Virus record (IMG/VR): IMGVR_UViG_3300010399_000040
Span: 3,427-67,426 of that record
DNA: 64,000 nt
Strand: one strand, 5' to 3'
DNA from: a virus
A program made the position numbers and the translations under genes. The notes beneath the pieces are model-generated. The model made no database searches, was not told the DNA's origin, and was given only the letters and a program-made list of their open reading frames with translations. This document shows positions 1,404 through 20,929 of the stretch, piece by piece; positions within the stretch are counted from its first letter, which is position 1, and every line of letters starts with the position of its first letter.

Positions 1404-1591
1404 TTTAGAAGTTTCTCCAACCATCGCTCAGCCTCCTCCGCACCCTGTCTGAGCACGCGCCGAGCCCACGCGTCCAACGCGTTCAACTTCGCTCTGCGCT
1501 CCTCGCAGCAGCAGTCGCCGATGAGCGCCTTCACTCGCTGCTCAGTCACGCCCGCAAGCGAAAGCGCCTTCTGCACGTAGTCTCCGAGCAT
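1400..1591 (-). CDS. small Cys-containing hypothetical protein
   Basis: MLGDYVQKAL...DCCCEERRAKLN; stop coupled to next gene start. Confidence 0.55.
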   Translation of the reverse strand: MLGDYVQKALSLAGVTEQRVKALIGDCCCEERRAKLNALDAWARRVLRQGAEEAERWLEKLLK

Positions 1592-2015
1592 GCTCCACCA
1601 GAGCTCCATCGCCGGAAGTCAGTTCGGTACATCCGAAGCACGCGAGGCCGACGACGTCAACGACGTACGGACCGACGCCCGGTAGGTCGCGCAAGTCCTT
1701 CCACGTGTCGGTGAGGAACACCTGCGAGAAGCGGACGAGTCGCGTCGCGCGAGTGTGTTGGAAGCCGAGTGGTCGGAGCAGATCAGCGAGCTCGCGGCGG
1801 TCAGCCTTCGCGAGCGACGGAGGGTCGGGGTAGCGAGCGAGGAGCTTCGCGAGCACCGGTTGCATCGCTACGCGCCGCGTGCGGTTCAGCAGAATGCTCG
1901 CGACGCACACGCGCCACGGGCATCCGCCGAGCCCACACTGTATAGGGACGGCGTCGAAGTCCAGCTCGTCCGTCGTAGCGAGCGTCAGCACGCGCTCGCG
2001 GGGCAGAGGTATCAC
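1542..2015 (-). CDS. HhH-GPD family DNA glycosylase (endonuclease III/MBD4-like)
   Basis: PWRVCVASILLNRT, LLRPLGF, LRDLPGVGPYVVD helix-hairpin-helix motif; GTG start overlapping upstream TGA. Confidence 0.8.
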   Translation of the reverse strand: MIPLPRERVLTLATTDELDFDAVPIQCGLGGCPWRVCVASILLNRTRRVAMQPVLAKLLARYPDPPSLAKADRRELADLLRPLGFQHTRATRLVRFSQVFLTDTWKDLRDLPGVGPYVVDVVGLACFGCTELTSGDGALVEHARRLRAEGAFACGRD

Positions 2016-2437
2016 CGTAGCTCCTTCAGCACTTGGAGGTGCTTGCACGCGCCGTTGGTCTTGAACTGCCAGCAGGAGCACGCACCGCCGACGACAGTGT
2101 GCTCCTCCGCGTCGTCGTGGGTGCCGATCACGCTCCAAGTGTCGGGTCCTACCTTGCAGACAGCGAAGGTCTGCGCGTTACACACCTTCAGCACGCGCCG
2201 ACCCTCGACCACGTCGAGGATCACTTTGCGCTGTAGCGGCGTCAGCTGCGCTGCCTTCTTCGCTATCCTGTGGAGCTTCGGCGGCTTCGGCTTCCTCGGT
2301 GGCACCGGCACCTCGCCGAGGTAGGAGTTCGCGTTGACTCTCGCGAGCAACTCCCCGATCGTCTCCTTCGGCTTGTGCCCTGTCGTGTAACTGCTAGCGA
2401 GCGTCCTACCTTCGCTGCTCGGGTCGTGGTTAGCCAT
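2012..2437 (-). CDS. SWIM zinc-finger protein
   Basis: CSCWQFKTNGACKH; start moved to ATG 2437 because the upstream part of the track ORF is a ribozyme. Confidence 0.7.
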   Translation of the reverse strand: MANHDPSSEGRTLASSYTTGHKPKETIGELLARVNANSYLGEVPVPPRKPKPPKLHRIAKKAAQLTPLQRKVILDVVEGRRVLKVCNAQTFAVCKVGPDTWSVIGTHDDAEEHTVVGGACSCWQFKTNGACKHLQVLKELR

Positions 2438-2454
2438 CGCGACGTCTCTCAGAG

Positions 2455-2515
2455 CGACCTGGCTCATCAGCGTGCGGCGGTCAGCACGCACAGACGCCCT
2501 TGCGGGCGTTTCGCC
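2455..2515 (-). ncRNA. type II hammerhead ribozyme HHR1 (GUC, cut 2493/2492)
   Basis: GGC-GAAA-CGCCC(GCAA)GGGCG-UC|UGUGCG(UGCUGACCGC)CGCACG-CUGAUGA-GCC-AGGUCG; loop UGACC pairs with tail GGUCG. Confidence 0.92.
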
Positions 2516-3421
2516 TCACTTGACAATCGCAGGTATCGCAGCCTTCGCGTGGTAGTTAAGCGAGGTCGGCTCCTCCTTGCGCCATGCGTTCCACGCGTGG
2601 AGGCACTTAACGTACATCTCACGGGAGGCGACAATCTTACGTTCTATTCCGGATCGCCTCGTCATTGAAGCTCTTACGAGGAACCGTGCGAGCACCCTCG
2701 TCGGACACATGTTGTCCGGCGCAGACTCGTCCTTCACTTTCGCCCAGAACTCCGTCGCAGCTCCTCGCGTCGAAGAGCGATCGAAGGTCGCCATCATCGC
2801 GCGCACTACAGGTTCGCGGAGCATATGCTTCGCTGGAGACATAGCAGACTTCGTGTCGCTGCTGCCGCAGAGCTTCTTCAGCCAGAGGCAGAAATCCTGA
2901 CGCTCGATGAGCTGCTCAGCTCTCTCCGCGTGGGGCACGCGCGCTATCTCTGCATCAGACCACTTCAAGTTAGCTGCCGCCGACACCGTGAGGTTGATGT
3001 ACTTCGTACCGACGTCTTTCAGCTCCGGGATCGTAGCAGCGAACGACAGGTTGACGTCGCTATGCGTCCTGCTGGACAAGTTGCTGTCGTAAGTGGCGTA
3101 CAACATAGCCGCGTCGTTCAACGTGTCGCACTTCCACCGCTCCAGGATAACGTAGAAATCAAGAGGGAGCTTCTCCTGTGAGCCCAGCATAACTGACGTG
3201 TGCTTGCCGTTCACTCGGTACGTGCAGTTAGTCTCCTTGCAGAGCACCGACGCCCACGTGACAGGGCGAAAGTTTCCGTCCTTCAAGATGCGGCGGTACA
3301 CCAGCAACCGTCGTTCGCTCAACGGACGATCGTGCGGCGCCGGTTCCATCTCCACGAACTCCTTGACCAGCGCCTGCGTAGGCAATATCGTCCTCGGTTT
3401 CTCCATCTGCGACCATGCCAT
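2516..3421 (-). CDS. ParB/DGQHR-like N-terminal domain protein
   Basis: DRPLS...RVNGKHT resembles the DGQHR motif; GAGG RBS. Confidence 0.5.
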   Translation of the reverse strand: MAWSQMEKPRTILPTQALVKEFVEMEPAPHDRPLSERRLLVYRRILKDGNFRPVTWASVLCKETNCTYRVNGKHTSVMLGSQEKLPLDFYVILERWKCDTLNDAAMLYATYDSNLSSRTHSDVNLSFAATIPELKDVGTKYINLTVSAAANLKWSDAEIARVPHAERAEQLIERQDFCLWLKKLCGSSDTKSAMSPAKHMLREPVVRAMMATFDRSSTRGAATEFWAKVKDESAPDNMCPTRVLARFLVRASMTRRSGIERKIVASREMYVKCLHAWNAWRKEEPTSLNYHAKAAIPAIVK

Positions 3422-3440
3422 TGCAATCTACCTCTGCGAG

Positions 3441-3501
3441 GGAACTGCCTCCTCAGCAGCGAGAGTTCATCCTCGCTGGACGCCCTTTCGGGCGTTTCGG
3501 C
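3441..3501 (-). ncRNA. type II hammerhead ribozyme HHR2 (GUC, cut 3479/3478)
   Basis: GCC-GAAA-CGCCC(GAAA)GGGCG-UC|CAGCGAG(GAUGAACU)CUCGCUG-CUGAGGA-GGC-AGUUC; pseudoknot GAACU/AGUUC. Confidence 0.93.
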
Positions 3502-3705
3502 TCACTCCTCGTCGGTGTCCTCCGTCACTACCATCTCGTTGATGGACTCCCTCAACTGCACGACCTCATAGTCGTCGATGTTTGGCTCGCCGTCGAACTC
3601 GCTCAACTTATCGTTGAGAGCATCGTTCGCGGCGTCCTCCGTGTCGTAACTGCCGTACACGCAGCAGGCGCTCACGTGGTTGATGCCGTACTTCATCGCG
3701 ATCAT
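3502..3705 (-). CDS. small acidic hypothetical protein
   Basis: ORF with GGAGG RBS; stop abuts HHR2. Confidence 0.6.
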   Translation of the reverse strand: MIAMKYGINHVSACCVYGSYDTEDAANDALNDKLSEFDGEPNIDDYEVVQLRESINEMVVTEDTDEE

Positions 3706-3716
3706 CCTCCGGGGTT

Positions 3717-3746
3717 AAGATACTGTCTCTTATATGCGAAAGTCTA
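3717..3746 (-). promoter_or_regulatory. candidate internal sigma70 promoter
   Basis: TAGACT-N18-TATCTT in an AT-rich intergenic gap. Confidence 0.35.
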
Positions 3747-4349
3747 CCTCACACCTCCGATCAGCTGAGCCACGATCCGGTCGGCGCACACAGGGCCGAT
3801 GCCACGTGTGACGCTCTCCGGCGTAGTCAGAGGCCGACCGCAGCATCCGCATCGGCCCTCGTGGTGTATCCTGAAACCGTTCGCTTCGATTACGTCGAGT
3901 TCGTCGGCGAACAGACGCTTCAGCACCTTGTTGAGCAACTTCACAGGGAAGCTGTCGAGGGAGTAGCTGCTCCTCCCAGTGACTCTGACTTGGCCGTCGA
4001 CCAACTTGCCGACGTACGTGTAGTCGGCCGTGTTGTTGGGGCCCGTCAAAAGCTTTACGAAGTAGGCCACTGGCCAGTTACCGTTCGCCTCCACGCGTTG
4101 CGCCCTGTAGGTGTAGTGTCGTGCTTCCGTCGCGCGGTAGCGCTCCGGTATCTCGACGGTGAAGATAGCGTCACCAGCTAGGAGCCAGCTACTGGAGAGT
4201 CGAAAGCTTTCGGTTGAGCTCTCTGGCCTCGGCGTGGGCTCGCTGACGGTCTCCTGTGACGAAGACGACGTCGAACCATCCGTCAGCGCAGACGAACCCG
4301 ACGAAGAACGCTCTTTCGTCTGGGCATACAACGACTTGGTACACGACAT
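3744..4349 (-). CDS. DUF6011-like zinc-ribbon protein
   Basis: C-terminal CGCCGRPLTTPESVTRGIGPVCA. Confidence 0.75.
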   Translation of the reverse strand: MSCTKSLYAQTKERSSSGSSALTDGSTSSSSQETVSEPTPRPESSTESFRLSSSWLLAGDAIFTVEIPERYRATEARHYTYRAQRVEANGNWPVAYFVKLLTGPNNTADYTYVGKLVDGQVRVTGRSSYSLDSFPVKLLNKVLKRLFADELDVIEANGFRIHHEGRCGCCGRPLTTPESVTRGIGPVCADRIVAQLIGGVR

Positions 4350-4369
4350 GGTACTCTCTTCCAGCGAGG

Positions 4370-4429
4370 GAACTGCCTCATCAGTGCGGAGAGTTCATCC
4401 TCCGCAAACGCCCGTGAGGGCGTTTCGGC
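4370..4429 (-). ncRNA. type II hammerhead ribozyme HHR3 (GUU, cut 4407/4406)
   Basis: GCC-GAAA-CGCCC(UCAC)GGGCG-UU|UGCGGAG(GAUGAACU)CUCCGCA-CUGAUGA-GGC-AGUUC. Confidence 0.93.
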
Positions 4430-4639
4430 TCAAGTTTTTATTGTCGATTCCAACAAGAAGCCTATTGAACTCTTCTTCGTCCGCTCCAGACACTTGTCAC
4501 ACACTGCCAGGCCGCTACCCCTTGGTCCGCCTACATTCTCGCCGCCGAACTCAAATCCAGCTGTGAAAGGTTCATCGCAAAAATCACACATAGGCCATTC
4601 ATCTTTGACAGATAGCCTCCGTATGCGTCGAATCTGCAT
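4430..4639 (-). CDS. small zinc-finger protein
   Basis: CDFC...CDKC; GGAGG RBS. Confidence 0.6.
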   Translation of the reverse strand: MQIRRIRRLSVKDEWPMCDFCDEPFTAGFEFGGENVGGPRGSGLAVCDKCLERTKKSSIGFLLESTIKT

Positions 4640-4787
4640 GCTTCACCTCCTCTCCTGTGAGGGTATATGTCGGAGCTTCCTCTCCTTCCACCCACGTGTA
4701 GAAGTTCGGTAGGTTGTTCATCCGCAGGAACTCCTGCCGCTCCTCGAACGGCAGGAGTTCCGCGATCTTCTCAAGCTCGGTCCGCAT
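4599..4787 (-). CDS. hypothetical protein
   Basis: ORF MRTELEKIAELL... overlapping neighbours. Confidence 0.45.
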   Translation of the reverse strand: MRTELEKIAELLPFEERQEFLRMNNLPNFYTWVEGEEAPTYTLTGEEVKHADSTHTEAICQR

Positions 4788-4980
4788 TCGCCACCGCCTC
4801 GTGGAACTCGCCACGGTAGTAGGCCGCCACCACCTCGTTCAAGGCGTCAGCTACCATCGCAGCGACGTCGCCCAACGGAACGTTGCCTCCGCCGGCGTCA
4901 GCTTGGTCCACTTCCAACTCGCCGGAGACGATTAGCGTCCTATCCGGCCTCATGGAAGCAGTGAAAGGTCTCGGGTACAC
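4771..4980 (-). CDS. hypothetical protein
   Basis: GTG start after GAGGAG RBS, downstream of HHR4. Confidence 0.55.
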   Translation of the reverse strand: MYPRPFTASMRPDRTLIVSGELEVDQADAGGGNVPLGDVAAMVADALNEVVAAYYRGEFHEAVANADRA

Positions 4981-4996
4981 ATTGCTCTCCTCATGT

Positions 4997-5067
4997 TGAG
5001 GGGACTGCCTCATCAGTCGGAAGCATTTCAAGCTTCCGAAACTTGGAGCAGAGCTCCAAGTTTCGGC
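4997..5067 (-). ncRNA. type II hammerhead ribozyme HHR4 (GUU, cut 5040/5039)
   Basis: GCC-GAAA-CUUGGAGC(UCU)GCUCCAAG-UU|UCGGAAGC(UUGAAAU)GCUUCCGA-CUGAUGA-GGC; loop UUGA may pair with downstream UCAA. Confidence 0.9.
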
Positions 5068-5068
5068 G

Positions 5069-5479
5069 TCAGATCGCGAGAATCTGCTTGAACTTCTTAA
5101 TCGTGTCCATGTGAGGATTGCGATAGAGCACGTAATCACCGTCTCCGACCTTGACGAGCAGATCGCGTTCGTACTCACAGCCCCGCCACGACCCGTGCAG
5201 CCAACCGACGACGTTCTTGTTCATCCACGCGCTGAACGAAGGTTTACTCGCCAACTCTTGGGCTTCCTGCCGCTCTTCCTCAGTTGCACCACTGGGAGTC
5301 GAGTACTTCGCTTCGATGCTCTTGAGACGTTGCTCCTCAACTGGCGAACGGAGAGCGACTGGAATGAGCGCCTGCAGATCGCTGAAAGTGCCGATCGACC
5401 TCATCTGCTTGAGGATGCTCTTGGTGAGCTTACAGGTCCGCAACTCCGCTTCGCCAGTCCGGACAATGACATCTGCCAT
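5069..5479 (-). CDS. hypothetical protein
   Basis: ATG after AAGGAG RBS (MADVIVRT...). Confidence 0.6.
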   Translation of the reverse strand: MADVIVRTGEAELRTCKLTKSILKQMRSIGTFSDLQALIPVALRSPVEEQRLKSIEAKYSTPSGATEEERQEAQELASKPSFSAWMNKNVVGWLHGSWRGCEYERDLLVKVGDGDYVLYRNPHMDTIKKFKQILAI

Positions 5480-5568
5480 GGTAAAACTCCTTGTTGAGCT
5501 CTGCTCGGATTGAGTCAGTAGCTCGTGTAGTGCTGGCTCCGGGCTCCAGCACAGCGCGAGACACTGCG

Positions 5569-5787
5569 TCAGTGCCACCAGCACACCTCGCAGATCGGGC
5601 ACACGAGGGTGTGACCATGCTGCGTGATGACTACCTTCTCATGGGCGTCGTCGTACCTCCAGCACTTCGGGCACTCGTGACCTGGGTCGTGACCCAAATC
5701 AGCGAGTCGCCGACCAGACTCAGTGAACATCGCGCAGTGGAACTTGACCCTGTCGCACAGGGCGGGTAGAGAGTCCATCTCTTTCAT
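5569..5787 (-). CDS. small Cys/His-rich zinc-binding protein
   Basis: HECPKC...CPIC. Confidence 0.55.
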   Translation of the reverse strand: MKEMDSLPALCDRVKFHCAMFTESGRRLADLGHDPGHECPKCWRYDDAHEKVVITQHGHTLVCPICEVCWWH

Positions 5788-5798
5788 TCTTCGCGAGG

Positions 5799-5860
5799 GA
5801 CCTGCCTCGTCAGGCGACGGAGGTCGTACCGTCGCGACACCGCTTGTGCGGTGTTTCGGC
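5799..5860 (-). ncRNA. type II hammerhead ribozyme HHR5 (GUC, cut 5836/5835)
   Basis: GCC-GAAA-CACCGC(ACAA)GCGGUG-UC|GCGACGG(UACGACCU)CCGUCGC-CUGACGA-GGC-AGGUC; pseudoknot GACCU/AGGUC. Confidence 0.93.
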
Positions 5861-6429
5861 TAGAACTCACCTGTGTAATTCCTGAGCTTCATCGCATCGG
5901 CCTCTCGGCCGTTGTCGCTGAGGTAGTCGCAGTACACGTCTATCGGCAATCGTTCGTCTGGGTTGTCGAGGATCGCTTCCAAGAGAGCGTAGTGGTCGCG
6001 CCCAGCGAACGATCCGGCGTTCTTCGCTTGGGAGTAGAGTAGAAGCAACTTGAGGAGGTCCTTGCGGCACTCTTTGTCGGTCACTGAGTAGTTGTCGCAG
6101 TCGGCGTTCGCCCTCGCGACACCCGCGGCATTGAGCTGCAGTCGTACGGGAGCTAACCACTGCCTCAGTTGCGCCTCATCAAGTCGCTTAGTCTCGGCGG
6201 AAGCTAACTCGGGAAGGCGAGCTACGATGTGCATCACTGCCTCGAGCACTTGAGCGCGCCTGAACCGACGCCCCAAGAACACCGCTGTTCGGGGACCGCG
6301 GAGGTTGACGTATATCTCGACTCTGTTTCCGACGTGTATCGTTGCGCTGTAATAACCATGCGCTTCTAACCTCGCGTTCACACCTCCGGCGTTGAGCGAC
6401 TGGACGACGGCGTCCAAGAAGTCCTGCAT
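5860..6429 (-). CDS. protein with C-terminal TIGR02996-like domain
   Basis: ALLEAILDNPDERLPIDVYCDYLSDNG; ATG 6429 after GGAGG. Confidence 0.65.
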   Translation of the reverse strand: MQDFLDAVVQSLNAGGVNARLEAHGYYSATIHVGNRVEIYVNLRGPRTAVFLGRRFRRAQVLEAVMHIVARLPELASAETKRLDEAQLRQWLAPVRLQLNAAGVARANADCDNYSVTDKECRKDLLKLLLLYSQAKNAGSFAGRDHYALLEAILDNPDERLPIDVYCDYLSDNGREADAMKLRNYTGEF

Positions 6430-6446
6430 GAACTCTTCCTCCGGAG

Positions 6447-6513
6447 CGACCTGGCTCATCAGCACGTGGAGGTCGTTCCACGTGGACACCGGGCTCTCAC
6501 CCGGTGTTTCGCC
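6447..6513 (-). ncRNA. type II hammerhead ribozyme HHR6 (GUC, cut 6485/6484)
   Basis: GGC-GAAA-CACCGGG(UGAGAG)CCCGGUG-UC|CACGUGGA(ACGACC)UCCACGUG-CUGAUGA-GCC-AGGUCG. Confidence 0.93.
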
Positions 6514-6960
6514 TTACTTCGTGATACCAAGCGCTTTGAGTTGCTCCTTGACCCGCTCGGCTTCCGCCGGGTTGGTCGCGAGCAGCGTCTTGAGCATCTC
6601 GGTCACCGAATCGGCCGTCACGGCCTTCGGAGCGCGAGGCGCCTTGCCGATCTCCTCCGCAGTGCCACCGAGGTGGTGGAGCAGCGGAGTGCCGACAGTC
6701 ATGAAGTTGTGACTCACGACAAAGTAGGTCTTTCCATGGAGGTCGACCTTGAACGCTCGCCGTGGCCCGCTGTCGCGCGCGCTCGCCGCCTTCACCGCCT
6801 CCTCCGAAGTGGCGAAGATCGCTGGAAGGTCCTTCCAGCTCGTTTTCTTCTCCTTCTTCGGAGCGTCACCGGCCACCGGGACCTTCGCGTCCCCACCCTT
6901 GTGGGTGGTGGGAGCGGTCTGGGCTTTCGGGGAAGCGGGGGCCGTCTTGACATCTGCCAT
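6514..6960 (-). CDS. Ala/Lys-rich hypothetical protein
   Basis: ATG after AGGAG (MADVKTAPASPK...). Confidence 0.6.
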   Translation of the reverse strand: MADVKTAPASPKAQTAPTTHKGGDAKVPVAGDAPKKEKKTSWKDLPAIFATSEEAVKAASARDSGPRRAFKVDLHGKTYFVVSHNFMTVGTPLLHHLGGTAEEIGKAPRAPKAVTADSVTEMLKTLLATNPAEAERVKEQLKALGITK

Positions 6961-7014
6961 TGTAGAGCTCCTGAACGCAGCTTCAGTGGGTGCTGCTGGA
7001 CCCGTACCGAGGAA

Positions 7015-7079
7015 AACCTGCCTCGTCAGAGTGGGTAGGTTAACTCCCACCTACACTGCACTATATGCAGTGTTTCGGC
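7015..7079 (-). ncRNA. type II hammerhead ribozyme HHR7 (GUA, cut 7052/7051)
   Basis: GCC-GAAA-CACUGCA(UAUAG)UGCAGUG-UA|GGUGGG(AGUUAACCUA)CCCACU-CUGACGA-GGC-AGGUU; pseudoknot AACCU/AGGUU. Confidence 0.9.
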
Positions 7080-7084
7080 TCGCA

Positions 7085-7303
7085 TCACTTGATCGAGAAC
7101 TCCTTAGCCGTCTCCTCGCGGTACTTCTTGTAGAGGATGGAGTACGACGGGGAGTAGTGGCAGCTCAACTCGGGGAACACTTCGCGATCGATGTCACGGA
7201 AAGTCGCGCCTTCGAGTCGCTTCTGAGCGACCTCGTCGGTCAAGTACTTCTGGACACCGCTAGGGAGCTTGTTGAAGTCGCGGAGAATGGACTTAGTCTG
7301 CAT
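7085..7303 (-). CDS. hypothetical protein (first gene of early operon)
   Basis: ATG after GAGGTG RBS (MQTKSILRD...). Confidence 0.6.
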   Translation of the reverse strand: MQTKSILRDFNKLPSGVQKYLTDEVAQKRLEGATFRDIDREVFPELSCHYSPSYSILYKKYREETAKEFSIK

Positions 7304-7330
7304 AGAGCACCTCGTGTATTTGAGTGAGAG

Positions 7331-7392
7331 GAACTGCCTCATCAGTGCGGAGAGTTCAACCTCCGCAGAGCAGTCACGAGACTGCTTTCGGC
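7331..7392 (-). ncRNA. type II hammerhead ribozyme HHR8 (CUC, cut 7368/7367)
   Basis: GCC-GAAA-GCAGUC(UCGU)GACUGC-UC|UGCGGAG(GUUGAACU)CUCCGCA-CUGAUGA-GGC-AGUUC; G15.2-C16.2 covariation. Confidence 0.92.
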
Positions 7393-7609
7393 TAGATGTG
7401 GGTGGCCGCTCAGGATCGACCCGTAGGTCGCTCACCCGTCCACCTTGTGTCGGCCTCGGTCGTCGCTGCCCACTTTCCGTCGTGGGTCTTGCCCAGCGCG
7501 ACTCCGACCCGAATTGTCAAAGATATGTCATCAAGGAGTTAGAGGGTCGAGTCAGCAGAAGGATTCTTCGTCTCTTCTCGCTCTCTTTCTCGCTCCATAC
7601 ATTAGATAC

Positions 7610-7637
7610 ATCATAGCAGTGAAAGTTTCAGAGTCAA
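7610..7637 (-). promoter_or_regulatory. sigma70-type early promoter
   Basis: TTGACT-N16-TATGAT with extended -10 TG, upstream of the ribozyme-punctuated operon. Confidence 0.65.
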
Positions 7638-7803
7638 CAGTTATTTTTAAGTCTTGACTTGCAAACGACTTAGGTCTCGTTCTCCAGGTTCAATCCTGGT
7701 ACCGCCGATCCGGGGATGATATAAACCCCGACCCGCCGGAGATATCAGTCCATGGATCATCCAGGGAGAACTGGGATTGATACCGTGTACCGCTAGAGGT
7801 GAT

Positions 7804-8397
7804 CTATCGACCAGCACCTAATAGCGCTGCCAACTTCGCCTTCCACTCCAGGAGCTGACCCTCGCTGTGCTGCAGAGCGCGGACGAGGGCAGCTCGTTTG
7901 GCTGCGATCACTTCCTTCGGAGAGGAGTAACTCCTTCCTCGTTGCTTATGGCGCCGCCCTTTCAGCTCCGCATCCCTCACGTTGTCGGTGTTGGAGCCCC
8001 AGAACACGTGGTCGACGCGGGCGCACTTCCTGTTGTCGCACCTGTGACACACGACGAGGCCACGGCCGATGGGAGCACCTAGCGCTGCGATCCAAGCTCT
8101 GCGTCGGTCGCGGAGCTCCTCGTACTCCTCGCACGGAGTCGTAGCTTTCTCGCCAAGCTTCTGCCCGAGGCTTCCCACTGTGTACGTCTCAAGCTCCACC
8201 AGCTGCAGGGACACCACCTTCACCTTGTCCTCGTGGAGCCTCACTTTCAGCAAAGCCGATCTGAGCTTCGGGTGGGCGTCTTTCAGCGCCGTCTGCATCA
8301 CTCTCCTCTCTATGTAGAGAGTCCAGTGGAGCACGTTGCTCGCTACCCTCTTGTCGCAACCTCTCAGTTTCGCTCTCAGCTTCGTGAGCGATCTCAT
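7804..8397 (-). CDS. HNH endonuclease
   Basis: VCHRCDNRKCARVDHVFWGSNTDNVRD. Confidence 0.85.
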   Translation of the reverse strand: MRSLTKLRAKLRGCDKRVASNVLHWTLYIERRVMQTALKDAHPKLRSALLKVRLHEDKVKVVSLQLVELETYTVGSLGQKLGEKATTPCEEYEELRDRRRAWIAALGAPIGRGLVVCHRCDNRKCARVDHVFWGSNTDNVRDAELKGRRHKQRGRSYSSPKEVIAAKRAALVRALQHSEGQLLEWKAKLAALLGAGR

Positions 8398-8528
8398 CCA
8401 GCCTCCTCAGCACGACGTCCTTAGGTAACCACACTTCCTTCACCACGAGGTCGACGTCGCCGAGTCGGTCGTACGCCTCTGCTACGTCCTCGCGCTGCCT
8501 CCTGCGTACTTCCTCCAGGAGCGAATCC

Positions 8529-9038
8529 TCACATGGGATCATCGCGGCCGCCGACTACGCCTTTGACGACGTCAATGAGCTCCTTGATGGGTCTGCTGGC
8601 GTCCAATCGGATGTACCTGTACTTCCGCACTTCCTCCCTGTATATCTGGACGAGCCTCTCGTATTTCGCCATGTCGAAGAGCGGATCGGGAGAGGCTGTC
8701 CAGCGTTGCTTCAACGTAACTAGTGGACAATCGAGGTAGAGGATGACGGACTGACGCCGCCAGAACGACTCATTGTGCGTGGAGACAGGACGACCGTAGA
8801 GGCGACCGTAGACGACGTTCGTCAAGCTCATGTGGCGGTCCACGATGTACGTCTTGGAAGGATCGTAGAGCGATATCCACAGCCTCTCGAAGCACCGTTC
8901 GACTTGGTCGACGATCTTGAGTATGTCGGACGTCATAGGAAGCGTAGGTACGAACGTGGCGTGAAGCCGACCTTGCAGAGCTTGAAAGAGCGTCGTCTTT
9001 CCGCTCTTGTCCGGCCCTTCGAGAGACACTATGGGCAA
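8529..9038 (-). CDS. P-loop nucleoside monophosphate kinase (thymidylate kinase-like)
   Basis: EGPDKSGKTT, IVDR motif. Confidence 0.8.
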   Translation of the reverse strand: MPIVSLEGPDKSGKTTLFQALQGRLHATFVPTLPMTSDILKIVDQVERCFERLWISLYDPSKTYIVDRHMSLTNVVYGRLYGRPVSTHNESFWRRQSVILYLDCPLVTLKQRWTASPDPLFDMAKYERLVQIYREEVRKYRYIRLDASRPIKELIDVVKGVVGGRDDPM

Positions 9039-10012
9039 CTGAGTATCCTCCGGATGTCAGCGACTGCGGTCTTGGCAGCCTCGTCGAAGCTGAAAGAGAG
9101 CATCTGCTTGAGGGGAACTTGCGCAGGGGCTTGCAACGCTCCTTCGATGCTAGCCACTAGATCAGCTCTGTCGGCGAAGTGCGGCCACTTCGGACCGATC
9201 ACCTCCGTGTACTCGTGCTTCCGCAGAACCACTGGACAGCAGCCAGCGGCGCACGCTTCGCGGAAGCTGACAGTGCTACCGACATTCTCAGTGAGGTGCA
9301 CAGAGACTTCGCACGTAGCTAGCTGCCTCTCGTACGATTCGGAAGTCGACCACGACGCCGGTACGATGCCTTTACGTCGTCCGTACCCAGTCGGATCGCT
9401 CACGTACACTCGGACCCCGCGGAGCTTCTTAGCGGCCGCTGCAAACATCGCGTAGTTCGTGTAGTCTGGATCGCTGATGCGACCTGAGAACAGAATCGAG
9501 CGGGGCACTCGCGCGGAGCTCCGTAGCTGTAGCAAGTTAGTTTCGTACCCGAATGGCCACACGTCGTCGCGGAGCTTCGACGACAGCGCGTACACGAAGT
9601 TCGCGCAGTTCCACCCTTCGCTGTACAGCGAAAGCTGCTCTGGCTTCGCTGGAAGCGTAGCTTCGACGATCGTCTTGACGTGAGGATGCAAGTGACGCAT
9701 GGGTATAGGTAGGAACTCGTTCGACGTGACGACGACGCCTCCGTCGCCAGCTAGACGAGCAAGCTCGCGCAACCGCGACGGGTCCCAGTGGAACTTCCTC
9801 TCCAGGTTGCTGACGTAACTCGTCCAAATCCTGTATACAGCAGAGGTGTCTACGTTGCCCTCGCACGCGCCGCGTTCAGGTAGGACCAGCAAAGAGTCGT
9901 CGATGAGTTTCGCTAAGTGCGCGTAGATGCGCACGCACGAATCGCTCATAAGGAACTTGTCGGTAACTTTGTTCTGCTGGGAGCAGAAGGGGTAGAATAC
10001 TACTCTCGGCAT
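9029..10012 (-). CDS. GT-B fold glycosyltransferase-like protein
   Basis: ILFSGRISD...VSFREACAAGCCPVV resembles the GT4 EX7E region; ATG 10012 after GAGG. Confidence 0.55.
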   Translation of the reverse strand: MPRVVFYPFCSQQNKVTDKFLMSDSCVRIYAHLAKLIDDSLLVLPERGACEGNVDTSAVYRIWTSYVSNLERKFHWDPSRLRELARLAGDGGVVVTSNEFLPIPMRHLHPHVKTIVEATLPAKPEQLSLYSEGWNCANFVYALSSKLRDDVWPFGYETNLLQLRSSARVPRSILFSGRISDPDYTNYAMFAAAAKKLRGVRVYVSDPTGYGRRKGIVPASWSTSESYERQLATCEVSVHLTENVGSTVSFREACAAGCCPVVLRKHEYTEVIGPKWPHFADRADLVASIEGALQAPAQVPLKQMLSFSFDEAAKTAVADIRRILSCP

Positions 10013-10503
10013 CGCACTTCCTCCCACGTGGTCGCGATCGCTTGACGAAAATCGATGTTCCACGTCTCGCAGAGACGGAGCAAATGCGCCACGTAGTACA
10101 CGATCGCACCGCGCTCTCGCGGGTCCTCGCACACGTACGCCGCTTGCCCGCAGAGCTTCGCTGCCATCAGGAAAGCCTCCTTCGGCTTTGGGAGCACAAG
10201 CGACGCGTCAGCGACGACTTTAGCGAAAGCTAAATTGTTGGCGGAGCACAGCGAGCAGACGAAGATCGCGCAATCTCCGACGGCGTCAACTAACATCGCG
10301 TTGAAATCAGCGTCTACGTAACGTCGCTCCGGATGCTTACCTCCGTTCGCTTGCTGGCACTTCAGCAGAGCGCGCATCAGCTCTCCTGACTCCTCGACGA
10401 GCCCTGCTGCCGGAAAGACTGGGAGCTGATCTGGGTACAACCTATCAAGCCACGCTCTGTGGTCGCGTTGGAACAGCTCTAACTCAGTAGCGACGACGCC
10501 CAC
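10000..10503 (-). CDS. MazG-like nucleotide pyrophosphohydrolase
   Basis: LVEESGEL...DAVGD. Confidence 0.7.
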   Translation of the reverse strand: MGVVATELELFQRDHRAWLDRLYPDQLPVFPAAGLVEESGELMRALLKCQQANGGKHPERRYVDADFNAMLVDAVGDCAIFVCSLCSANNLAFAKVVADASLVLPKPKEAFLMAAKLCGQAAYVCEDPRERGAIVYYVAHLLRLCETWNIDFRQAIATTWEEVRCRE

Positions 10504-11237
10504 GGGTAGGCCTCCGGGTTACGCAATGCGTCGAAACAGGTGTCCCTCGACGCGTCGCTTGGTACTAAGATGGACTCGTTACGGGAACCGCTCTCGAACG
10601 CAGGGTTCGGCTCTATACTGTGCAGCGAACCGAACGTCCAGAACAGTGAACCGACGCTACGACCGAGCGTTTCCGCAACGCGGATCAACACGTTCGTCAG
10701 CACGACGAGGTCGTACGGCATCACCTTCGTGAAGTTGCAGCTACGCTGGTAGACGAGCAGATCGAGTCCGTAGCGCCCGAACAAGAAGTGGAGATGTGAC
10801 CAGCACGCCGGTCTGTTGACGTCACGCGGAATCGGGCCACCCATCTGGACCACCGCCGCACGCGTGAAAGGGTCGAGCTGAAGCGCTGCGATGCACTGCT
10901 CTATCTGAGGCACCGCGATCGCTCCGTATGCTCCGATCCACCTGTCACCCGTGAGGTACTTCCCGGCGCGAGCGTTGTACTTACGCAGCACACCTGCTTC
11001 CTCCGTCGCTGCGAAGAAATGGAGCACGTTCGCTAGCGCCCATCTCCTGTCGATAGGACGCTCCGTGACGACGTTGAAGAGCGGGTTAGTCAGCTCGAAC
11101 GTAGTGCCGGGTTTCGCTTCGAACGTGAAGCCGTCGCACGCAGGCGAACTCTCCACGCGACGCACGTACTTGTGCTCACGTATAGCACTCCACATCCCCC
11201 TGTAGAGTTCGCAGGCGTTCGCGCATCTAAGCATCAC
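10479..11237 (-). CDS. thymidylate synthase-fold enzyme, probable dCMP hydroxymethylase
   Basis: GAYG, DPFTRAA, PAC catalytic Cys, YQRSCN...PYD, GSLH. Confidence 0.75.
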   Translation of the reverse strand: MMLRCANACELYRGMWSAIREHKYVRRVESSPACDGFTFEAKPGTTFELTNPLFNVVTERPIDRRWALANVLHFFAATEEAGVLRKYNARAGKYLTGDRWIGAYGAIAVPQIEQCIAALQLDPFTRAAVVQMGGPIPRDVNRPACWSHLHFLFGRYGLDLLVYQRSCNFTKVMPYDLVVLTNVLIRVAETLGRSVGSLFWTFGSLHSIEPNPAFESGSRNESILVPSDASRDTCFDALRNPEAYPWASSLLS

Positions 11238-11806
11238 AGCCTCCTGAGCACCGCTTGCTTACCGAGCTCCAGCACCTCGTACGAGTCAGCATACGCTCGG
11301 ATTAAGAAGTCGATAGCTTCCTTCGGTTGCACGGCTACACGTTTGAAAGGGCGCGAGTAATCGTCGAAGATCACGGTGCAACCTTCATTGAGCAATCGGT
11401 GCACCAACACGAAGTCCTGGACGACGCTACGTCCCTCGTGGTCACCGTCTATGTAGACGAAGTCGTAAGGTCCGCTGTGCCACAGGAGATATGCCTCGCT
11501 CCGCATACGTCTGATAGTGACCTGTCTGCGACGCGCATGTTCAGCGATGTTTCGCGTGAACACCTCGTACGTGTCGCGGAGCGTCTTCTCGCTCTCTGCG
11601 GTCCCCGTGAAAGGATCAACGCACGTGAGCCGAGCATCGCTGTGTGTCAGCAGATTATCGAGCATCCATACAGCGCTTCGCCCTTCGAAGGAGCCAATCT
11701 CCAGGCACTTGCACTTAGTACCTGCCAAGTGAAGGAGATACTTCTCCCACGTCGGGACGTGCTCGCTGAACCAGTCGACAGTGAAGTTCACAGTATCCTC
11801 CCGCAC
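11234..11806 (-). CDS. class I SAM-dependent methyltransferase (Methyltransf_24-like)
   Basis: LEIGSFEGRS, YIDGDH, IFDDY. Confidence 0.85.
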   Translation of the reverse strand: MREDTVNFTVDWFSEHVPTWEKYLLHLAGTKCKCLEIGSFEGRSAVWMLDNLLTHSDARLTCVDPFTGTAESEKTLRDTYEVFTRNIAEHARRRQVTIRRMRSEAYLLWHSGPYDFVYIDGDHEGRSVVQDFVLVHRLLNEGCTVIFDDYSRPFKRVAVQPKEAIDFLIRAYADSYEVLELGKQAVLRRL

Positions 11807-13851
11807 ATCGCATCCATCTTAGCCCACCCTCCGGTGTTCTTGCTCCACATGGTGGCTGTGGTGCCTTCGGCTAACAAGGGGAAATCCGGCGCCCACGCTG
11901 GGCACTCGGACATAGCGATCATGAACTCGCGAAAATGCTTCGGGCCCTTCTGACAACCGCCTTCGTCGTGTACGTGGAAGACGGGGTCAAGTCCTAACTG
12001 CTCGTGACGGACTAACGCCATGCCGAGGAAGTCCGCGCATATCCCTTGACAGATGTTCTCGACGGCCTTCGACCCATAGAGAAAGCCCGTATAGCCACGC
12101 GGATGGTCGTAGACGAACGTCGGGATCGCCTTCTCCGGCATGTTGTACATCTTGCAGTACGCCGGGACCATGTCAGCTATGCGTGAATTGCGGTACACGA
12201 TGGGTCTGCCACTCGGCAGCTCTATGTGCAAAGAGTTCTGCTTCACGTAGAACTTGCACTTAGCTACCTCCGACGACACGCCGTGCACGGCGTTTATAAC
12301 AGCGTCGCCCACCGTCTTCCACAGAGCAGGAACTTCCGGGTACGTCGAGCGGTAGAACTTGACTGCCTCGTCGGCGGTGTAGCCTGCGTCGTACATCGCT
12401 TGCAGCATATCGAACTCACCACGAGCCCTGTTAGTGAACTCGAACTTCGCACCGGACATGCCGTATCCGCACCCGAGGATCAGAGCTTTACAGAGGTTGT
12501 ACTTGTCAGCTTCGTCCTTCTTGGAGACGCGTCGTCCGAATATCTTCTCACTGAGGTCGATGTACAAACTCTGCTTCACGTCAGCGAACGTCGCGAGCAT
12601 CTTCTTGGAGTCGGCGATCCACGCGAGGCACCGCGCTTCGATCTGAGCGTAGTCAGCGATGAGGAGATCGCCCTGCACGATGTGTCGGATCATGCCGTTG
12701 AGAATCTCGGAAGGTGCGATGTGTCGCTTAGCTTTCTCGCTAGCGTGCTTCGCAGCTGCTACCACCGCCTCGTATTCAAGCTCCACGCCGCGGATGTCGG
12801 TCTCGCGAGCGAGCACGGAAGGAAGGTTGTGAGGTTGGAGACCACGTCCAGCCCAACGACCTGGACCTGCGCCGTACACGACGAACGCGTCTCGTATGCG
12901 ATCGTCAGCTTCGAGGACACCCTCGTACCTCGCTCCCTTCCTCTCGTAGCCAAGCACCGCGTCGAGCTTGCCTACGCCAATGCCTACGAGCTCCTTGCGG
13001 TGCATCAGAGCTTCCTGCGCGACCTTCAGCATCTCGCCGAGAGATCCTTCCCCCGTGAAGAACGTCTCCGGAGAGTCGTTGAACTGCTTGAGCGTGGCTT
13101 TGTTCACGCCGTCAAGCTTGAAACCCAACGTCTCCATCCACTCTTGCACCTGCTTCGACGAGCGCGGGTTCACTTTCTCTCCGTCGTTCTCGTACTCGTC
13201 GAAAGCGTCGGCGGAGCGCCGACGGTTCTCGGCAAACAGAGCTTTCAGCTTCACAGCGAACTCGCGGTTCACGGGGATGCCTCGTTGGTTGATGATGCGA
13301 TCGACCGTCATGACGTCGGCTATGCCGTACCCCGCCACGTGCGAGTGTATCTGCTCCAGCAATACTACGTCGCGGACGTTATACTCCATCAGCATGGCGT
13401 GAGCGGGACCGACGGCAGGAACGCCCAACCGACCGACTTTGCACAGCATGTCGATCAGCCGAGCGCCGTTCTTGTCTTTGCCCTCCCCTGTGAGCGCCAT
13501 ACCGAGCTTGTCGAGGCCTCCGGGGAGGCCAGCGGCGTGGGCCATCGGAAGAGTGTCGCACCACGTCGCTTCAGGTAGTTTCAGCGTGTGCTCCCATATC
13601 GCAGCGTCGAAGGCGGCGTTGTGCGCCACCAACGTGTGTTGCTCTGCGATACGTTGCAACGTCTCTCTGTGCTCCGGCGTGAGGTACGGGCCCATGCGGT
13701 GGATCGCGTCGCCGACCTTGACTACGCAAGTGAGCACCTTAGTCGACGGGTCCTTGGCGTACTTCTGCGCAGTGGAGCCTTTGAGCTCGTGCGAACTCTG
13801 AGTCTCGAAGTCGATATACGCAGGGTTCACTGGCGACCAGTCACACTTCAC
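11788..13851 (-). CDS. family A DNA polymerase with 3'-5' exonuclease
   Basis: IDFET, AHNAAFD, YN..DV exonuclease motifs; ADYAQIEAR motif A, K...LG..YG motif B, HVHDE motif C. Confidence 0.93.
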   Translation of the reverse strand: MKCDWSPVNPAYIDFETQSSHELKGSTAQKYAKDPSTKVLTCVVKVGDAIHRMGPYLTPEHRETLQRIAEQHTLVAHNAAFDAAIWEHTLKLPEATWCDTLPMAHAAGLPGGLDKLGMALTGEGKDKNGARLIDMLCKVGRLGVPAVGPAHAMLMEYNVRDVVLLEQIHSHVAGYGIADVMTVDRIINQRGIPVNREFAVKLKALFAENRRRSADAFDEYENDGEKVNPRSSKQVQEWMETLGFKLDGVNKATLKQFNDSPETFFTGEGSLGEMLKVAQEALMHRKELVGIGVGKLDAVLGYERKGARYEGVLEADDRIRDAFVVYGAGPGRWAGRGLQPHNLPSVLARETDIRGVELEYEAVVAAAKHASEKAKRHIAPSEILNGMIRHIVQGDLLIADYAQIEARCLAWIADSKKMLATFADVKQSLYIDLSEKIFGRRVSKKDEADKYNLCKALILGCGYGMSGAKFEFTNRARGEFDMLQAMYDAGYTADEAVKFYRSTYPEVPALWKTVGDAVINAVHGVSSEVAKCKFYVKQNSLHIELPSGRPIVYRNSRIADMVPAYCKMYNMPEKAIPTFVYDHPRGYTGFLYGSKAVENICQGICADFLGMALVRHEQLGLDPVFHVHDEGGCQKGPKHFREFMIAMSECPAWAPDFPLLAEGTTATMWSKNTGGWAKMDAMCGRIL

Positions 13852-14015
13852 TTCACGTCCTCTGGAGGCGGTATCTCACCGACGTAAAGCCAGTGAGTGT
13901 AATCCTGACAGCACTCGCGATACTCATTAGGCAATATGTAGCGTTCCCAATGCGTGTCTGTGTGCCACATGACGTTGAACTTGACAGGTAGCACAGACAC
14001 AGGGTGCCAGTTCAT
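13848..14015 (-). CDS. small hypothetical protein
   Basis: MNWHPVSVLP...THW, coupled to both neighbours. Confidence 0.45.
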   Translation of the reverse strand: MNWHPVSVLPVKFNVMWHTDTHWERYILPNEYRECCQDYTHWLYVGEIPPPEDVK

Positions 14016-14404
14016 AGCTTCGGCCACACGTAAGGAAGGGTGGAAGGTTCGGACCATCCGAACTGACTGTAATGCTCAGGAAACTTCCGGAGCAGGTTGG
14101 ACCTGTGGCTCGCGTGGAAAGTTTCGTCACCGAACCATGGAGGCAAAGGACGAACGTCGCTAGCGTATGCTTCTATCTTGTCGTAGCAGGTGTCGCGATA
14201 CCCGCGACTCTGCCACTCGACGCATACGTAGAGGCCGTACACCGCTAGGGCCGCTTCGAAGCCACGCCACATCTTGGAAGCGGGATGGTGAGGCCTGCTA
14301 CCTCTGAGCAGCTGCAGGACTTCGACACGTTGCTTGCCCAAACGCGCTCTATCGAGACAGGCGGCGCTGCGCGCGAAATCAGCGTGAGGTAGGAACGTGT
14401 TCAC
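14012..14404 (-). CDS. pyrimidine dimer DNA glycosylase-like protein (MSMEG_6728/DenV family)
   Basis: TFLP...LDRARLGKQRVE...HPASKMWRG...HASHRSNLLRK. Confidence 0.85.
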   Translation of the reverse strand: MNTFLPHADFARSAACLDRARLGKQRVEVLQLLRGSRPHHPASKMWRGFEAALAVYGLYVCVEWQSRGYRDTCYDKIEAYASDVRPLPPWFGDETFHASHRSNLLRKFPEHYSQFGWSEPSTLPYVWPKL

Positions 14405-14625
14405 TGGTGAAGCTCTCGCGCTACACGGTCTAGCGACCAACCTTCGAAGATCGCACGAAAAGCGATGGCTGGACGACGGTAGAGCCTCACAGCGAGTTCA
14501 GCTCTCTCGACGTCGCTCATCGACCAACCTACTTCCTTTATGAGGCCCACGTGGTGGACGATGTCTCGCCCGCAGTCGACGAGCTGCTCACCGTCTACGC
14601 TCACAACTTCATCCCCGTGTACCAC
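14401..14625 (-). CDS. hypothetical protein
   Basis: short coupled ORF. Confidence 0.4.
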   Translation of the reverse strand: MVHGDEVVSVDGEQLVDCGRDIVHHVGLIKEVGWSMSDVERAELAVRLYRRPAIAFRAIFEGWSLDRVARELHQ

Positions 14626-16748: not shown

Positions 16749-16765
16749 GCATCTACACCCTGTTG

Positions 16766-16837
16766 TAGTGGAGCGGACGGGAGTCGAACCCGTTTTTCTT
16801 CAGCCTACTGGACTGAATAATACGACCGGTACACCCC
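16766..16837 (-). ncRNA. tRNA-Ala/tmRNA-like element lacking D stem and canonical anticodon arm
   Basis: GGGGUG.../CGCUCC-A acceptor with G3:U70, T arm ACGGG-UUCGACU-CCCGU, central 7-bp hairpin. Confidence 0.5.
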
Positions 16838-16939
16838 AAGTGGAGCGGTTCCCACGCTCCTTCCGGTTTTAGCCCCGGATGGCGTTCCTTCGCGCCGATT
16901 GCCTTGCTTAGAGGTTAGGTGCGAAGGATCGGCGGGAAG

Positions 16940-17230
16940 TCACGGAGCCGGCGGAGTCGCGTCGGCTTCAGCTTGGCTGAAGTCTGCGTCGAGCTTCGTC
17001 ACGGCGTCGACGACGGCTTGCGGAACGGCGGGAGTGGCACCGATGAGAGCTTTGATGGCCTTGATGTTGGCGTCGAGAGCCTGGAAGCGAGCGTCGTACG
17101 ACTGCAGCTTCGCAGTGAGTTCGTCGATAGTCATGAACGTAGCATCTCCGAAGAAGTAAGAAACTGACAGGGTGACGATAGCGACCAACAAGGTCGCGAT
17201 CGAGGTAGCTAAGATGGCTGTGAGCATCAT
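16940..17230 (-). CDS. membrane-anchored coiled-coil protein
   Basis: N-terminal hydrophobic helix; TGATG coupling. Confidence 0.55.
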   Translation of the reverse strand: MMLTAILATSIATLLVAIVTLSVSYFFGDATFMTIDELTAKLQSYDARFQALDANIKAIKALIGATPAVPQAVVDAVTKLDADFSQAEADATPPAP

Positions 17231-17994: not shown

Positions 17995-18011
17995 GCGACT
18001 AGTCTCCAGTG

Positions 18012-18848: not shown

Positions 18849-19111
18849 CCTACCTCCATGTTCGTGAAGTCTTTATATGAGAGAGTTATCTCTACGTGAT
18901 ATCCTCCGGAACGACCTCGACGCGTCACCGGACCTTGCGCCGCATGCTGTGCACGGAACGCCCGCGCTTTAGCTTTGAAGTACTTCGTGGACGGACCTGC
19001 ACAGTAGTATGGTATCGAGTCGATCCAGAACTGTAAGTCAGTCTCGCGAGGGTAGAAACGTAGCTTATCGAGCTCCGCTCGCACTCCGTCCGCGAACTCC
19101 TTACGAGTCAT
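18758..19111 (-). CDS. hypothetical protein
   Basis: ORF coupled to upstream stop; 3' end overlaps the nuclease. Confidence 0.4.
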   Translation of the reverse strand: MTRKEFADGVRAELDKLRFYPRETDLQFWIDSIPYYCAGPSTKYFKAKARAFRAQHAAQGPVTRRGRSGGYHVEITLSYKDFTNMEVGCAIYVSSGRRSGRCTLPEPASSSCVRGAS

Positions 19112-20801: not shown

Positions 20802-20929
20802 TGCAACCTCGATGCGTCAGGAAAGACTACGTGTATAGCGCCGGAGCGGTACACGTAGCGGATGAGCCCTACCTTGTGCCATTTGTCAAGGAGGGCTAAG
20901 CTGTACGTGGGGCGAGAGAGCACGTACGT

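Follow-up and report, generated by a model that had tools for sequence, protein, structure and literature searches.

Hammerhead ribozymes that cluster together and flank genes in prophages have been described by Perreault et al. (2011; PMC3088659), and the processing of long phage transcripts into mRNAs of gene length has been proposed as their role in the main text of that paper. Three tandem arrangements from three bacteria have been reported there to cut as predicted in vitro, the one from Agrobacterium also in E. coli, and most type II members have been found to carry a pseudoknot of at least four pairs between loop I and the bases that follow stem II, which is required for fast cutting at the physiological Mg2+ concentration of 0.5 mM. 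For three type II hammerheads of Desulfovibrio vulgaris, cleavage in vivo has been observed by cyPhyRNA-seq (PMC8782182). We describe here an array of eight type II hammerheads, termed HH1 to HH8 in their 5' to 3' order, on the minus strand of a window of 64,000 nt from a soil phage, the whole stretch of DNA analysed, which corresponds to bases 3427-67426 of the 67,426-base virus record IMGVR_UViG_3300010399_000040. The record has been rated complete and has an exact direct terminal repeat of 118 bases; head and replication genes support its identity as a phage genome. The eight copies lie within 4.9 kb, on the same minus strand as the twelve array genes (A to L, Table 1), and are arranged with them in units of one to three genes.

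In several respects the array resembles the clusters of 2011: the hammerheads lie close to one another along one putative transcript, they flank single genes or short blocks of changing identity in phage DNA, they are of type II with a pseudoknot that joins loop I to the 3' tail, and the same role has been proposed for them. The tested cases of Perreault et al. (2011) have been tandem arrangements in bacterial prophages, including a triple of Agrobacterium tumefaciens, whereas the present array counts eight copies, all of type II, in a complete phage genome with terminal repeats in which no tyrosine integrase has been found. The D. vulgaris hammerheads are likewise of type II and near phage-like genes, and cyPhyRNA-seq captures the kind of ends that are predicted here; unlike the copies of the array, they are located at three separate places of the genome (PMC8782182). 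The original prediction had known of no description at such a density; novelty and an exceptional density are not supported, given the precedent of 2011 and the 7, 9 and 12 copies that have been found in other phages. Eight copies are not very unusual, both the phenomenon and the hypothesis date from 2011, and the discovery is a modest one. A literature search has returned no description of the stop-fused layout detailed below or of arrays of this size, and larger published arrays may exist; in the main text of Perreault et al. (2011; PMC3088659), the terms "stop codon" and "ribosome" are absent. The abutment of stop codons and ribozymes, the layout of promoter-like site, leader and first ribozyme, and the conservation within a lineage are additions of the present analysis.

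Beyond the known hammerheads, two other systems invite comparison. In bacteriophage T7, the polycistronic early transcript is cut between the genes by the host RNase III into discrete mRNAs with hairpin ends. The array had been likened to this processing, and the likeness extends to the outcome and not to the mechanism: RNase III is a protein enzyme that acts on double-stranded hairpins and leaves 5'-phosphate and 3'-OH ends, whereas self-cutting with 5'-OH and cyclic-phosphate ends is predicted here. In insulators of the RiboJ type, a ribozyme located before the ribosome-binding site strips the upstream RNA and leaves a hairpin at the 5' end, which renders expression independent of the neighbouring sequence. 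Such parts are engineered, single and derived from a satellite-RNA hammerhead, whereas the array is natural and conserved in its lineage.

Detection of the Eight Hammerheads

The original prediction of eight complete type II hammerheads on the minus strand has been borne out by a strict descriptor, which recovers all of them at their places and requires a 3-bp stem II, GAAA, a stem III hairpin, U-H, a stem I hairpin, CUGANGA and the second strand of stem II in this order. The descriptor matches the minus strand of the window exactly eight times and the plus strand not at all, and it has no match in 200 mononucleotide shuffles of the window. The 12-mer CTGANGAGNCAG occurs exactly eight times in the window as well, each time at a hammerhead.

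The Rfam model RF02276 (Hammerhead_II, gathering cut-off 37 bits), which had been proposed as a check, gives mixed scores: three copies exceed the cut-off with default filters and four with permissive ones (HH6, HH1, HH7, and HH4), while three others remain between 26.8 and 34.5 bits (HH3, HH8, and HH5) and HH2 is unreported (scores in Table 1). The phage copies agree with RF02276 in the core, the topology and the pseudoknot tail. HH2 and HH5 deviate from it by a longer stem III and stem I or another loop, with a poor score or none at all; both are nonetheless canonical by the descriptor and by a covariance model of our own (71.6 and 63.2 bits, respectively). This model was built from the eight copies and run over the whole window with the filters off, where it yields eight matches of 63-80 bits followed by the next one at 12.8 bits; the eight fit it by construction, and its informative part is the lack of additional copies. 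As nothing else scores above 12.8 bits, the window contains no further or decayed copies. Other ribozyme classes have been found neither in the window at E up to 10 nor in the left 6 kb of the genome, including 3.4 kb outside the window, at E up to 1.

Core, Stems, and Pseudoknot

The conserved core, consisting of C3 U4 G5 A6 N7 G8 A9 and G12 A13 A14, is canonical in all eight copies, with N7 being U in five, C in two and G in one of them, and the A15.1-U16.1 pair is likewise present in all eight. Position H17, after which cleavage would occur, is C in five copies, U in two and A in one, and never G. In each copy the core is surrounded by three helices, of which stems I and III end in loops and stem II is left open, the permutation by which type II is defined. 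Several details that had been read from the sequence before have been reproduced, namely the triplets GUC (four copies), GUU (two), GUA and CUC, the swap of stem II between GCC/GGC (six copies) and GGC/GCC (two), and the swap of the 15.2-16.2 pair between C-G (seven copies) and G-C (one); the cut sites and the product sizes of 316, 567, 649, 796, 633, 928 and 986 nt have been recomputed exactly.

The stems differ in sequence from copy to copy and retain their pairing. In an alignment of these eight copies from one genome, which has itself been fitted to the structure, 97.0% of 165 cells pair, compared to 70.6% in shuffles (0 of 500 reach the observed value), and pairing drops to 35-43% once the partners are displaced by one to three columns. 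Two-sided changes are seen in 14 of the 21 modelled pairs. They comprise 12 of the 16 pairs of stems II, III and I, in which 96-100% of the cells are paired, and two pairs of the pseudoknot between loop I and the 3' tail, in which 92.5% of the cells pair; one pseudoknot pair is A-U in four copies and C-G in four. A pseudoknot of four to six contiguous pairs can be formed by seven of the eight copies (GAACU/AGUUC in three, GACCU/AGGUC or close variants in three, AACCU/AGGUU in one). HH5 has none and is probably the slowest copy, as far as this can be judged from the missing contiguous pseudoknot. Three hammerheads in a tandem repeat of the collinear relative G015 (on L130), to which we return below, have a 3-nt loop I and no visible pseudoknot.

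When the copies are folded alone, the minimum free energy structure keeps 11-20 of the 15-20 hammerhead pairs, with all pairs being kept in five of the eight; with flanks of 60 nt on each side, the corresponding structures of HH2, HH4 and HH5 keep 7-9 of 17-20 pairs. Judged from sequence and predicted fold, the eight are genuine hammerheads of type II and lack no feature that activity requires.

Placement Between Genes

All copies had been described as lying between genes. Seven of them indeed stand directly after a stop codon, and the exception is HH1, which does not directly follow a gene and sits in a non-coding stretch of ∼410 nt behind a promoter-like site. In the seven copies, the distances from the stop codon to the first base of stem II are 5, 0, -1, 1, 0, 0 and 0 nt, five of the seven being at -1 or 0, and the next start codon is found 16-59 nt past stem II (the start of gene F being assumed).

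The same layout has been observed in a comparison set of 156 type II hammerheads (loci L008-L128) on other contigs, which were found with a pattern modelled on the subtype of this phage and with our own descriptor and do not form a random sample. In 113 of these 156 the stop codon of an open reading frame (ORF) of at least 50 codons lies within -4 to +5 nt, as compared with 147 of 3120 random positions (4.7%), and the stops of these 113 all fall between -1 and +4 nt. The stop overlaps the ribozyme by one base in 45 cases and abuts it in 35 (80 at -1 or 0 together), the median distance from stop to cut site is 26 nt, and a start codon follows 10-40 nt downstream in 128. Among the loci with two or more copies, all copies are on a single strand in 31 of 31. 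Besides, stem II is preceded by an A in 135 of the 156 hammerheads, more than the 80 cases that are explained by a stop at -1 or 0. This A corresponds to the conserved one at the beginning of the Rfam consensus and may be of importance for the ribozyme as such. The CCCUC run of the tail has been considered by eye as an anti-Shine-Dalgarno element, which has been rejected, the pairing being inconsistent between the copies.

Relatives of the Array

Neither megablast against GenBank phages nor scans of the viral collection for protein patterns of the polymerase or of gene I have revealed a close relative of the phage, and among GenBank phages the polymerase reaches 28% identity at best. With HH6 as the query, blastn has matched one unclassified record, and near-identical or related sequence is present in the DNA contigs of four soil or rhizosphere studies. 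A pattern scan of the viral collection has returned at least 118 stretches. Among the matches listed, partial loci hold six copies in two cases, five in three, four in five, three in seven, two in 12, one in 54 and none in 35. Seven hammerheads within 3.1 kb are carried by the complete 55-kb phage G001 and nine within 7 kb by the 98.6-kb record G007; G011, considered as a diverged partner of G007, has been discarded as a second copy of the same phage.

Related phages had been suggested as the place to look for the same arrangement, and it has been found there, as in G015, the 64-kb record behind locus L088. G015 is collinear with the phage on both sides of the array at 32-47% protein identity, the shared genes being a ThyA-like gene, its neighbour and Tmk upstream, and HhH-GPD, methyltransferase, dehydratase and one further gene downstream. 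Its array comprises 12 descriptor-valid hammerheads in 4.8 kb on one strand, eight of which are reported by Rfam, and only four of about 12 array genes are common to the two phages. Homologs of E, I and L are encoded on L088, and L126 encodes those of B and I; the gene order is kept, and hammerheads occupy the corresponding junctions. The recurring junctions in G015 and/or L126 are E-hammerhead, hammerhead-B and I-small ORF-hammerhead. At orthologous junctions the stem sequences of the ribozymes differ and the fold is the same, and between L126 and the array any nucleotide similarity is limited to the ribozymes themselves. The array, together with its start and several junctions, is accordingly old and has been maintained, and the inner genes turn over. 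According to these sequence comparisons, the array marks a fast-turnover zone of small genes. In G015, a 237-nt unit of a hammerhead and an ORF of 49 aa is present in 2.4 tandem copies of 100% identity (5224-5786 of L130); no tandem repeat has been found in the window analysed here.

Start of the Putative Operon

Downstream of an HNH endonuclease gene, a weak terminator-like hairpin, an A+T-rich promoter-like patch, a leader and HH1 follow one another. In the region 7000-26000, only three promoter-like sites reach at least 10/12, namely the one preceding the array and two at the divergent junction of the gene arms near 23.9 kb. The promoter-like site is located 218 nt before the first ribozyme, and in G015 a site with the sequence TTGACA-16-TATACT (11/12) is located 283 nt before the first ribozyme of that phage. 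The designation of the array as an early operon is suggested by the sigma-70-like site together with the small ORFans.

The leader also contains the 15-mer ATCTTTGACAATTCG, which includes TTGACA and is identical at 7510-7524 (−) of the window and 4723-4737 (+) of L130 in the relative. It occurs once per genome, in both phages between the promoter-like site and the first hammerhead, and the leaders of the phage and this relative are otherwise unrelated. The 15-mer might be an operator or a second promoter element. A replacement of 71 letters adjoins it (7523->7531) in two DNA runs.

Proposed Mechanism

The best-supported mechanism is a co-transcribed RNA that cuts itself into gene-sized units, to which we assign a probability of roughly three in four. 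The earlier proposal of a self-processing polycistronic mRNA accordingly stands as regards the real hammerheads and a placement that fits gene-sized units, and falls as regards its novelty. Transcription of the array as one unit, cleavage in vivo and an effect on stability and translation are predicted as follows. The host RNA polymerase would start at the sigma-70-like site near 7610, and each ribozyme, once completed through its pseudoknot tail, would cut itself after H17. The cut of HH1 would remove a leader of ∼236 nt, provided that transcription starts near 7603, and the later cuts would release the seven units listed in Table 1 with one to three small genes each, followed by a last piece with gene L and ∼ten overlapping downstream genes. 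It follows from the type II order that the upstream product would end at the stem III hairpin, 23-33 nt past the stop codon and with a 2',3'-cyclic phosphate, and that the downstream product would carry a 5'-hydroxyl and open immediately with the stem I hairpin, at a distance of 48-91 nt from the start codon. Nothing but the 3-bp stem II joins the two products, so that they should separate immediately. In a zone of quickly changing genes, the likely benefit would be that the expression and stability of each small accessory gene are independent of its context.

A broader reading is put forward only tentatively and may well prove wrong, namely that some phage lineages use type II arrays as a conserved platform from which rapidly changing accessory genes are expressed. 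Such a platform would consist of a host-type promoter, a discarded leader and self-contained units, in which the ribozyme is fused to the stop codon and its tail to the next ribosome-binding site. If this is true, genes could be inserted, duplicated or lost without disturbing their neighbours, the mRNAs could escape end-dependent decay by the host, and the arrays would be the natural equivalent of synthetic ribozyme insulators and would correspond in function to the cassette arrays of integrons. Insulation, if true, would also explain the gathering of ribozymes in variable accessory regions of phages and would provide natural parts for operon design. The phage and its collinear relative constitute a clean natural pair in this regard, with eight and 12 ribozymes, a promoter-like start, conserved flanks and changing genes in between; the pair allows the idea of mRNA processing to be tested, and the placement rules can be read from it directly.

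Several observations weigh against self-cutting into gene-sized units. Four of the eight copies remain below the Rfam cut-off, including the unreported HH2, and HH5 lacks a contiguous pseudoknot. The flanks disrupt the predicted folds of HH2, HH4 and HH5, and therefore co-transcriptional folding probably matters and cleavage could be partial. Where the stop codon abuts, a terminating ribosome would sit over the beginning of the ribozyme and could delay its cutting. The counts of promoter-like and terminator-like sites are overall not above those of shuffles, these sites being consensus matches, and the phage appears in no RNA run among the public runs listed. The stabilising effect of the new RNA ends is a presumed one, drawn from bacterial RNA decay in general. 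Finally, reviews leave the biological role unresolved: the processing idea is repeated in a review of 2019 with the remark that more work is needed, and in a paper of 2023 the reason for the association of the ribozymes with each other and with phage genes is called unknown.

Among the alternatives, cutting that serves mainly regulation survives best, and we still consider it unlikely. Differing speeds or a gating by translation would then set the lifetimes or amounts of the cistrons, or their shutdown. The copies do differ in features relevant to the rate, HH5 being without a contiguous pseudoknot and the triplets varying between GUC, GUU, GUA and CUC, a ribosome terminating at the abutting stop must overlap the 5' part of the ribozyme, and different stabilities or translation efficiencies have been suggested as an outcome in the 2019 review. 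However, nothing in the sequence indicates a switch controlled by a ligand or a protein, and the near-uniform build here and in the 156 other hammerheads resembles generic punctuation rather than gene-specific control.

A role at the level of DNA appears quite improbable. The ribozymes, as repeats of ∼60 bp with 75-85% identity, would in this case drive an integron-like recombination of cassettes or be carried along as selfish passengers of them. Such a role would fit the sharing of four of ∼12 genes with the collinear relative between two conserved flanks, the identical tandem units of that relative, and the restriction of nucleotide similarity with L126 to the ribozymes. It would also fit two blocks that end at ribozyme edges: related DNA contigs show a 2437->3438 joint, by which K and HH8 are gone, and a related DNA contig shows a 5067->5569 joint, by which E and the spacer are skipped. 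These contigs were aligned at 85% likeness, so that apparent joints may stem from repeats or from other organisms. Of 228 internal homology ends between related contigs, moreover, 9 (3.9%) are no more than 10 nt away from a hammerhead edge, compared with 143 of 4560 (3.1%) for ORF-stop boundaries and 1.1% for random positions, and hammerhead edges have been rejected as special recombination hot spots, there being no excess beyond that of a gene boundary. The invariant core and the covarying stems and pseudoknot argue for selection on the RNA fold and not on DNA identity, and ribozymes at orthologous junctions differ much in their stem sequences. In the comparison with DNA contigs, in which 40 of 141 substitutions were displayed and stretches lacking contig cover were left uninterpreted, the only listed variant inside a ribozyme is a U->C change at the cut-site base of HH6, which converts GUU to GUC, both of which are allowed; an insertion of AA is located exactly between the stop codon of gene B and HH3.

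Circular or spliced RNAs, generated from the inter-ribozyme units by successive cutting and re-joining, are very improbable. The 5'-OH and cyclic-phosphate ends could be used by hammerheads or by ligases of the RtcB type, and the possibility has been raised by Perreault et al. (2011; PMC3088659); according to the main text of that paper, however, such products were looked for and went undetected. Re-ligation is disfavoured by the 3-bp stem II, which alone would hold the halves after cutting, and the units bear ordinary ribosome-binding sites and ORFs. That the motifs are inactive relics or chance look-alikes is scarcely credible: four of eight fall below the Rfam gathering score, one of them being unreported, but the descriptor has no match in 200 shuffles, the cores are canonical, the covariation is strong, and a relative with 32-47% protein identity has kept the array.

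Features of the Putative Operon and Genome Context

The preferred reading of a self-cut polycistronic RNA is laid out by coordinates in Table 1. Third-position G+C is 0.69-0.90 in 11 of the 12 array genes. Searches of the cassette genes against Pfam, PHROGs and NCBIfam have assigned a family to gene I only, with weak or sub-threshold matches for C, D, E and K. The one of gene C (residues 145-179) reaches 27.3 bits with TIGR02996, the cut-off being 29.05; as this domain is known from Gemmata obscuriglobus, the match is a faint hint at a planctomycete host.

Table 1. Positions of ribozymes, genes and further features of the array in window coordinates, with the predicted cleavage products. Bits refer to RF02276 unless stated otherwise; the start codons of F, G and H are our own reading of the sequence.
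Feature	Position	Strand	Description	Size or score
Terminator-like hairpin	7726-7741	−	weak, T-rich tail, 3' of HNH gene	6 pairs
Promoter-like site	7610-7637	−	sigma-70-like, TTGACT-16-TATGAT with TG, in A+T-rich patch; likely operon start	10/12
Leader	7393-7609	−	non-coding, would be removed by HH1; holds 15-mer 7510-7524	∼217 nt
HH1	7331-7392	−	CUC, cut 7368/7367, pseudoknot GAACU/AGUUC	44.4 bits
Gene A	7085-7303	−	no family match, third-position G+C 0.83	72 aa
HH2	7015-7079	−	GUA, cut 7052/7051, pseudoknot AACCU/AGGUU	own model 71.6 bits
Gene B	6514-6960	−	homologs in L126 and G015, each just 3' of a hammerhead	148 aa
HH3	6447-6513	−	GUC, cut 6485/6484, stem II GGC/GCC, pseudoknot CGACCU/AGGUCG	34.5 bits
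Gene C	5860-6429	−	sub-threshold TIGR02996 at C-terminus	189 aa
HH4	5799-5860	−	GUC, cut 5836/5835, pseudoknot GACCU/AGGUC, first base overlapped by stop TAG	37.7 bits
Gene D	5569-5787	−		72 aa
Gene E	5069-5479	−	47-49% identical G015 homolog also abuts a hammerhead	136 aa
HH5	5007-5067	−	GUU, cut 5040/5039, canonical core, no contiguous pseudoknot	26.8 bits
Gene F	4771-4980	−	GTG start assumed; overlapping ORFs F, G, H	62-69 aa (F-H)
Gene G	4599-4787	−	see gene F	
Gene H	4430-4639	−	see gene F	
HH6	4370-4429	−	GUU, cut 4407/4406, pseudoknot GAACU/AGUUC	47 bits
Gene I	3744-4349	−	DUF6011 and phrog_20259	201 aa
Gene J	3502-3705	−	L126 and G015 share the order I, small ORF, hammerhead	67 aa
HH7	3442-3501	−	GUC, cut 3479/3478, pseudoknot GAACU/AGUUC	43.2 bits
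Gene K	2516-3421	−	weak phrog_5931 match only	301 aa
HH8	2455-2515	−	GUC, cut 2493/2492, stem II GGC/GCC, pseudoknot (U)GACC/GGUC(G)	34.2 bits
Gene L	2012-2437	−	starts ribozyme-free, largely overlapping downstream block to left end of genome	141 aa
Predicted unit			A	316 nt
Predicted unit			B	567 nt
Predicted unit			C	649 nt
Predicted unit			D and E	796 nt
Predicted unit			F, G and H	633 nt
Predicted unit			I and J	928 nt
Predicted unit			K	986 nt
Predicted last piece			L onward	

For three hammerhead-free spacers of the array, comparison of their folding with that of shuffles has given no sign of a new ribozyme. The D-E spacer (5480-5571, −, ∼89 nt) can form a long hairpin and a second one with -33.8 kcal/mol, which is better than in most shuffles (z -2.44, 4 of 200 as good), and no such tendency is seen for the I-J spacer (z -1.36) or for the one that follows HH2 (z 0.17). 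Downstream of HH8, ∼ten mostly overlapping genes without any ribozyme extend to the left end of the genome and include an HhH-GPD protein, a sugar C-methyltransferase, a Cpn10-like protein and a sugar dehydratase/epimerase.

The array is located within the leftward arm of the genome, in which a helicase, a primase-helicase and a DNA polymerase are followed by thymidylate synthase-like and thymidylate kinase genes and by the HNH endonuclease gene; the rightward arm contains the portal and head genes. The HNH gene (HNH_3 domain, 7804-8397, −) stands directly upstream of the promoter-like site of the operon, and the collinear relative has ∼2.5 kb of other sequence at this position before its own promoter-like site. 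The two promoter-like sites of the divergent junction (23839-23948), TTGACG-17-TATAAT (minus strand, 11/12) and TTGACT-16-TAGAAT (plus strand), are strong, point in opposite directions and sit in a gap of low G+C (0.52) between the arms.

Many genes for sugar nucleotides and modification, along with thymidylate and HhH-GPD genes, have been found at 56348-60524 (−) and 8529-11237 (−) of the window and at 1431-5564 (−) of the genome (L129). The set comprises a DegT-type aminotransferase, a radical SAM/SPASM protein, a glycosyltransferase, a C-methyltransferase and a dehydratase/epimerase, and in combination with the thymidylate synthase-like, thymidylate kinase and HhH-GPD genes it suggests a hypermodification of the DNA or a decoration with sugars. 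Two further proteins are encoded in the rightward arm: an unusually long one of 1327 aa (28257-32240, +) with a portal domain at residues 321-781 and a second conserved part at its C-terminus, and one of 611 aa (33037-34872, +) in which a NUDIX and a head-morphogenesis domain are fused.

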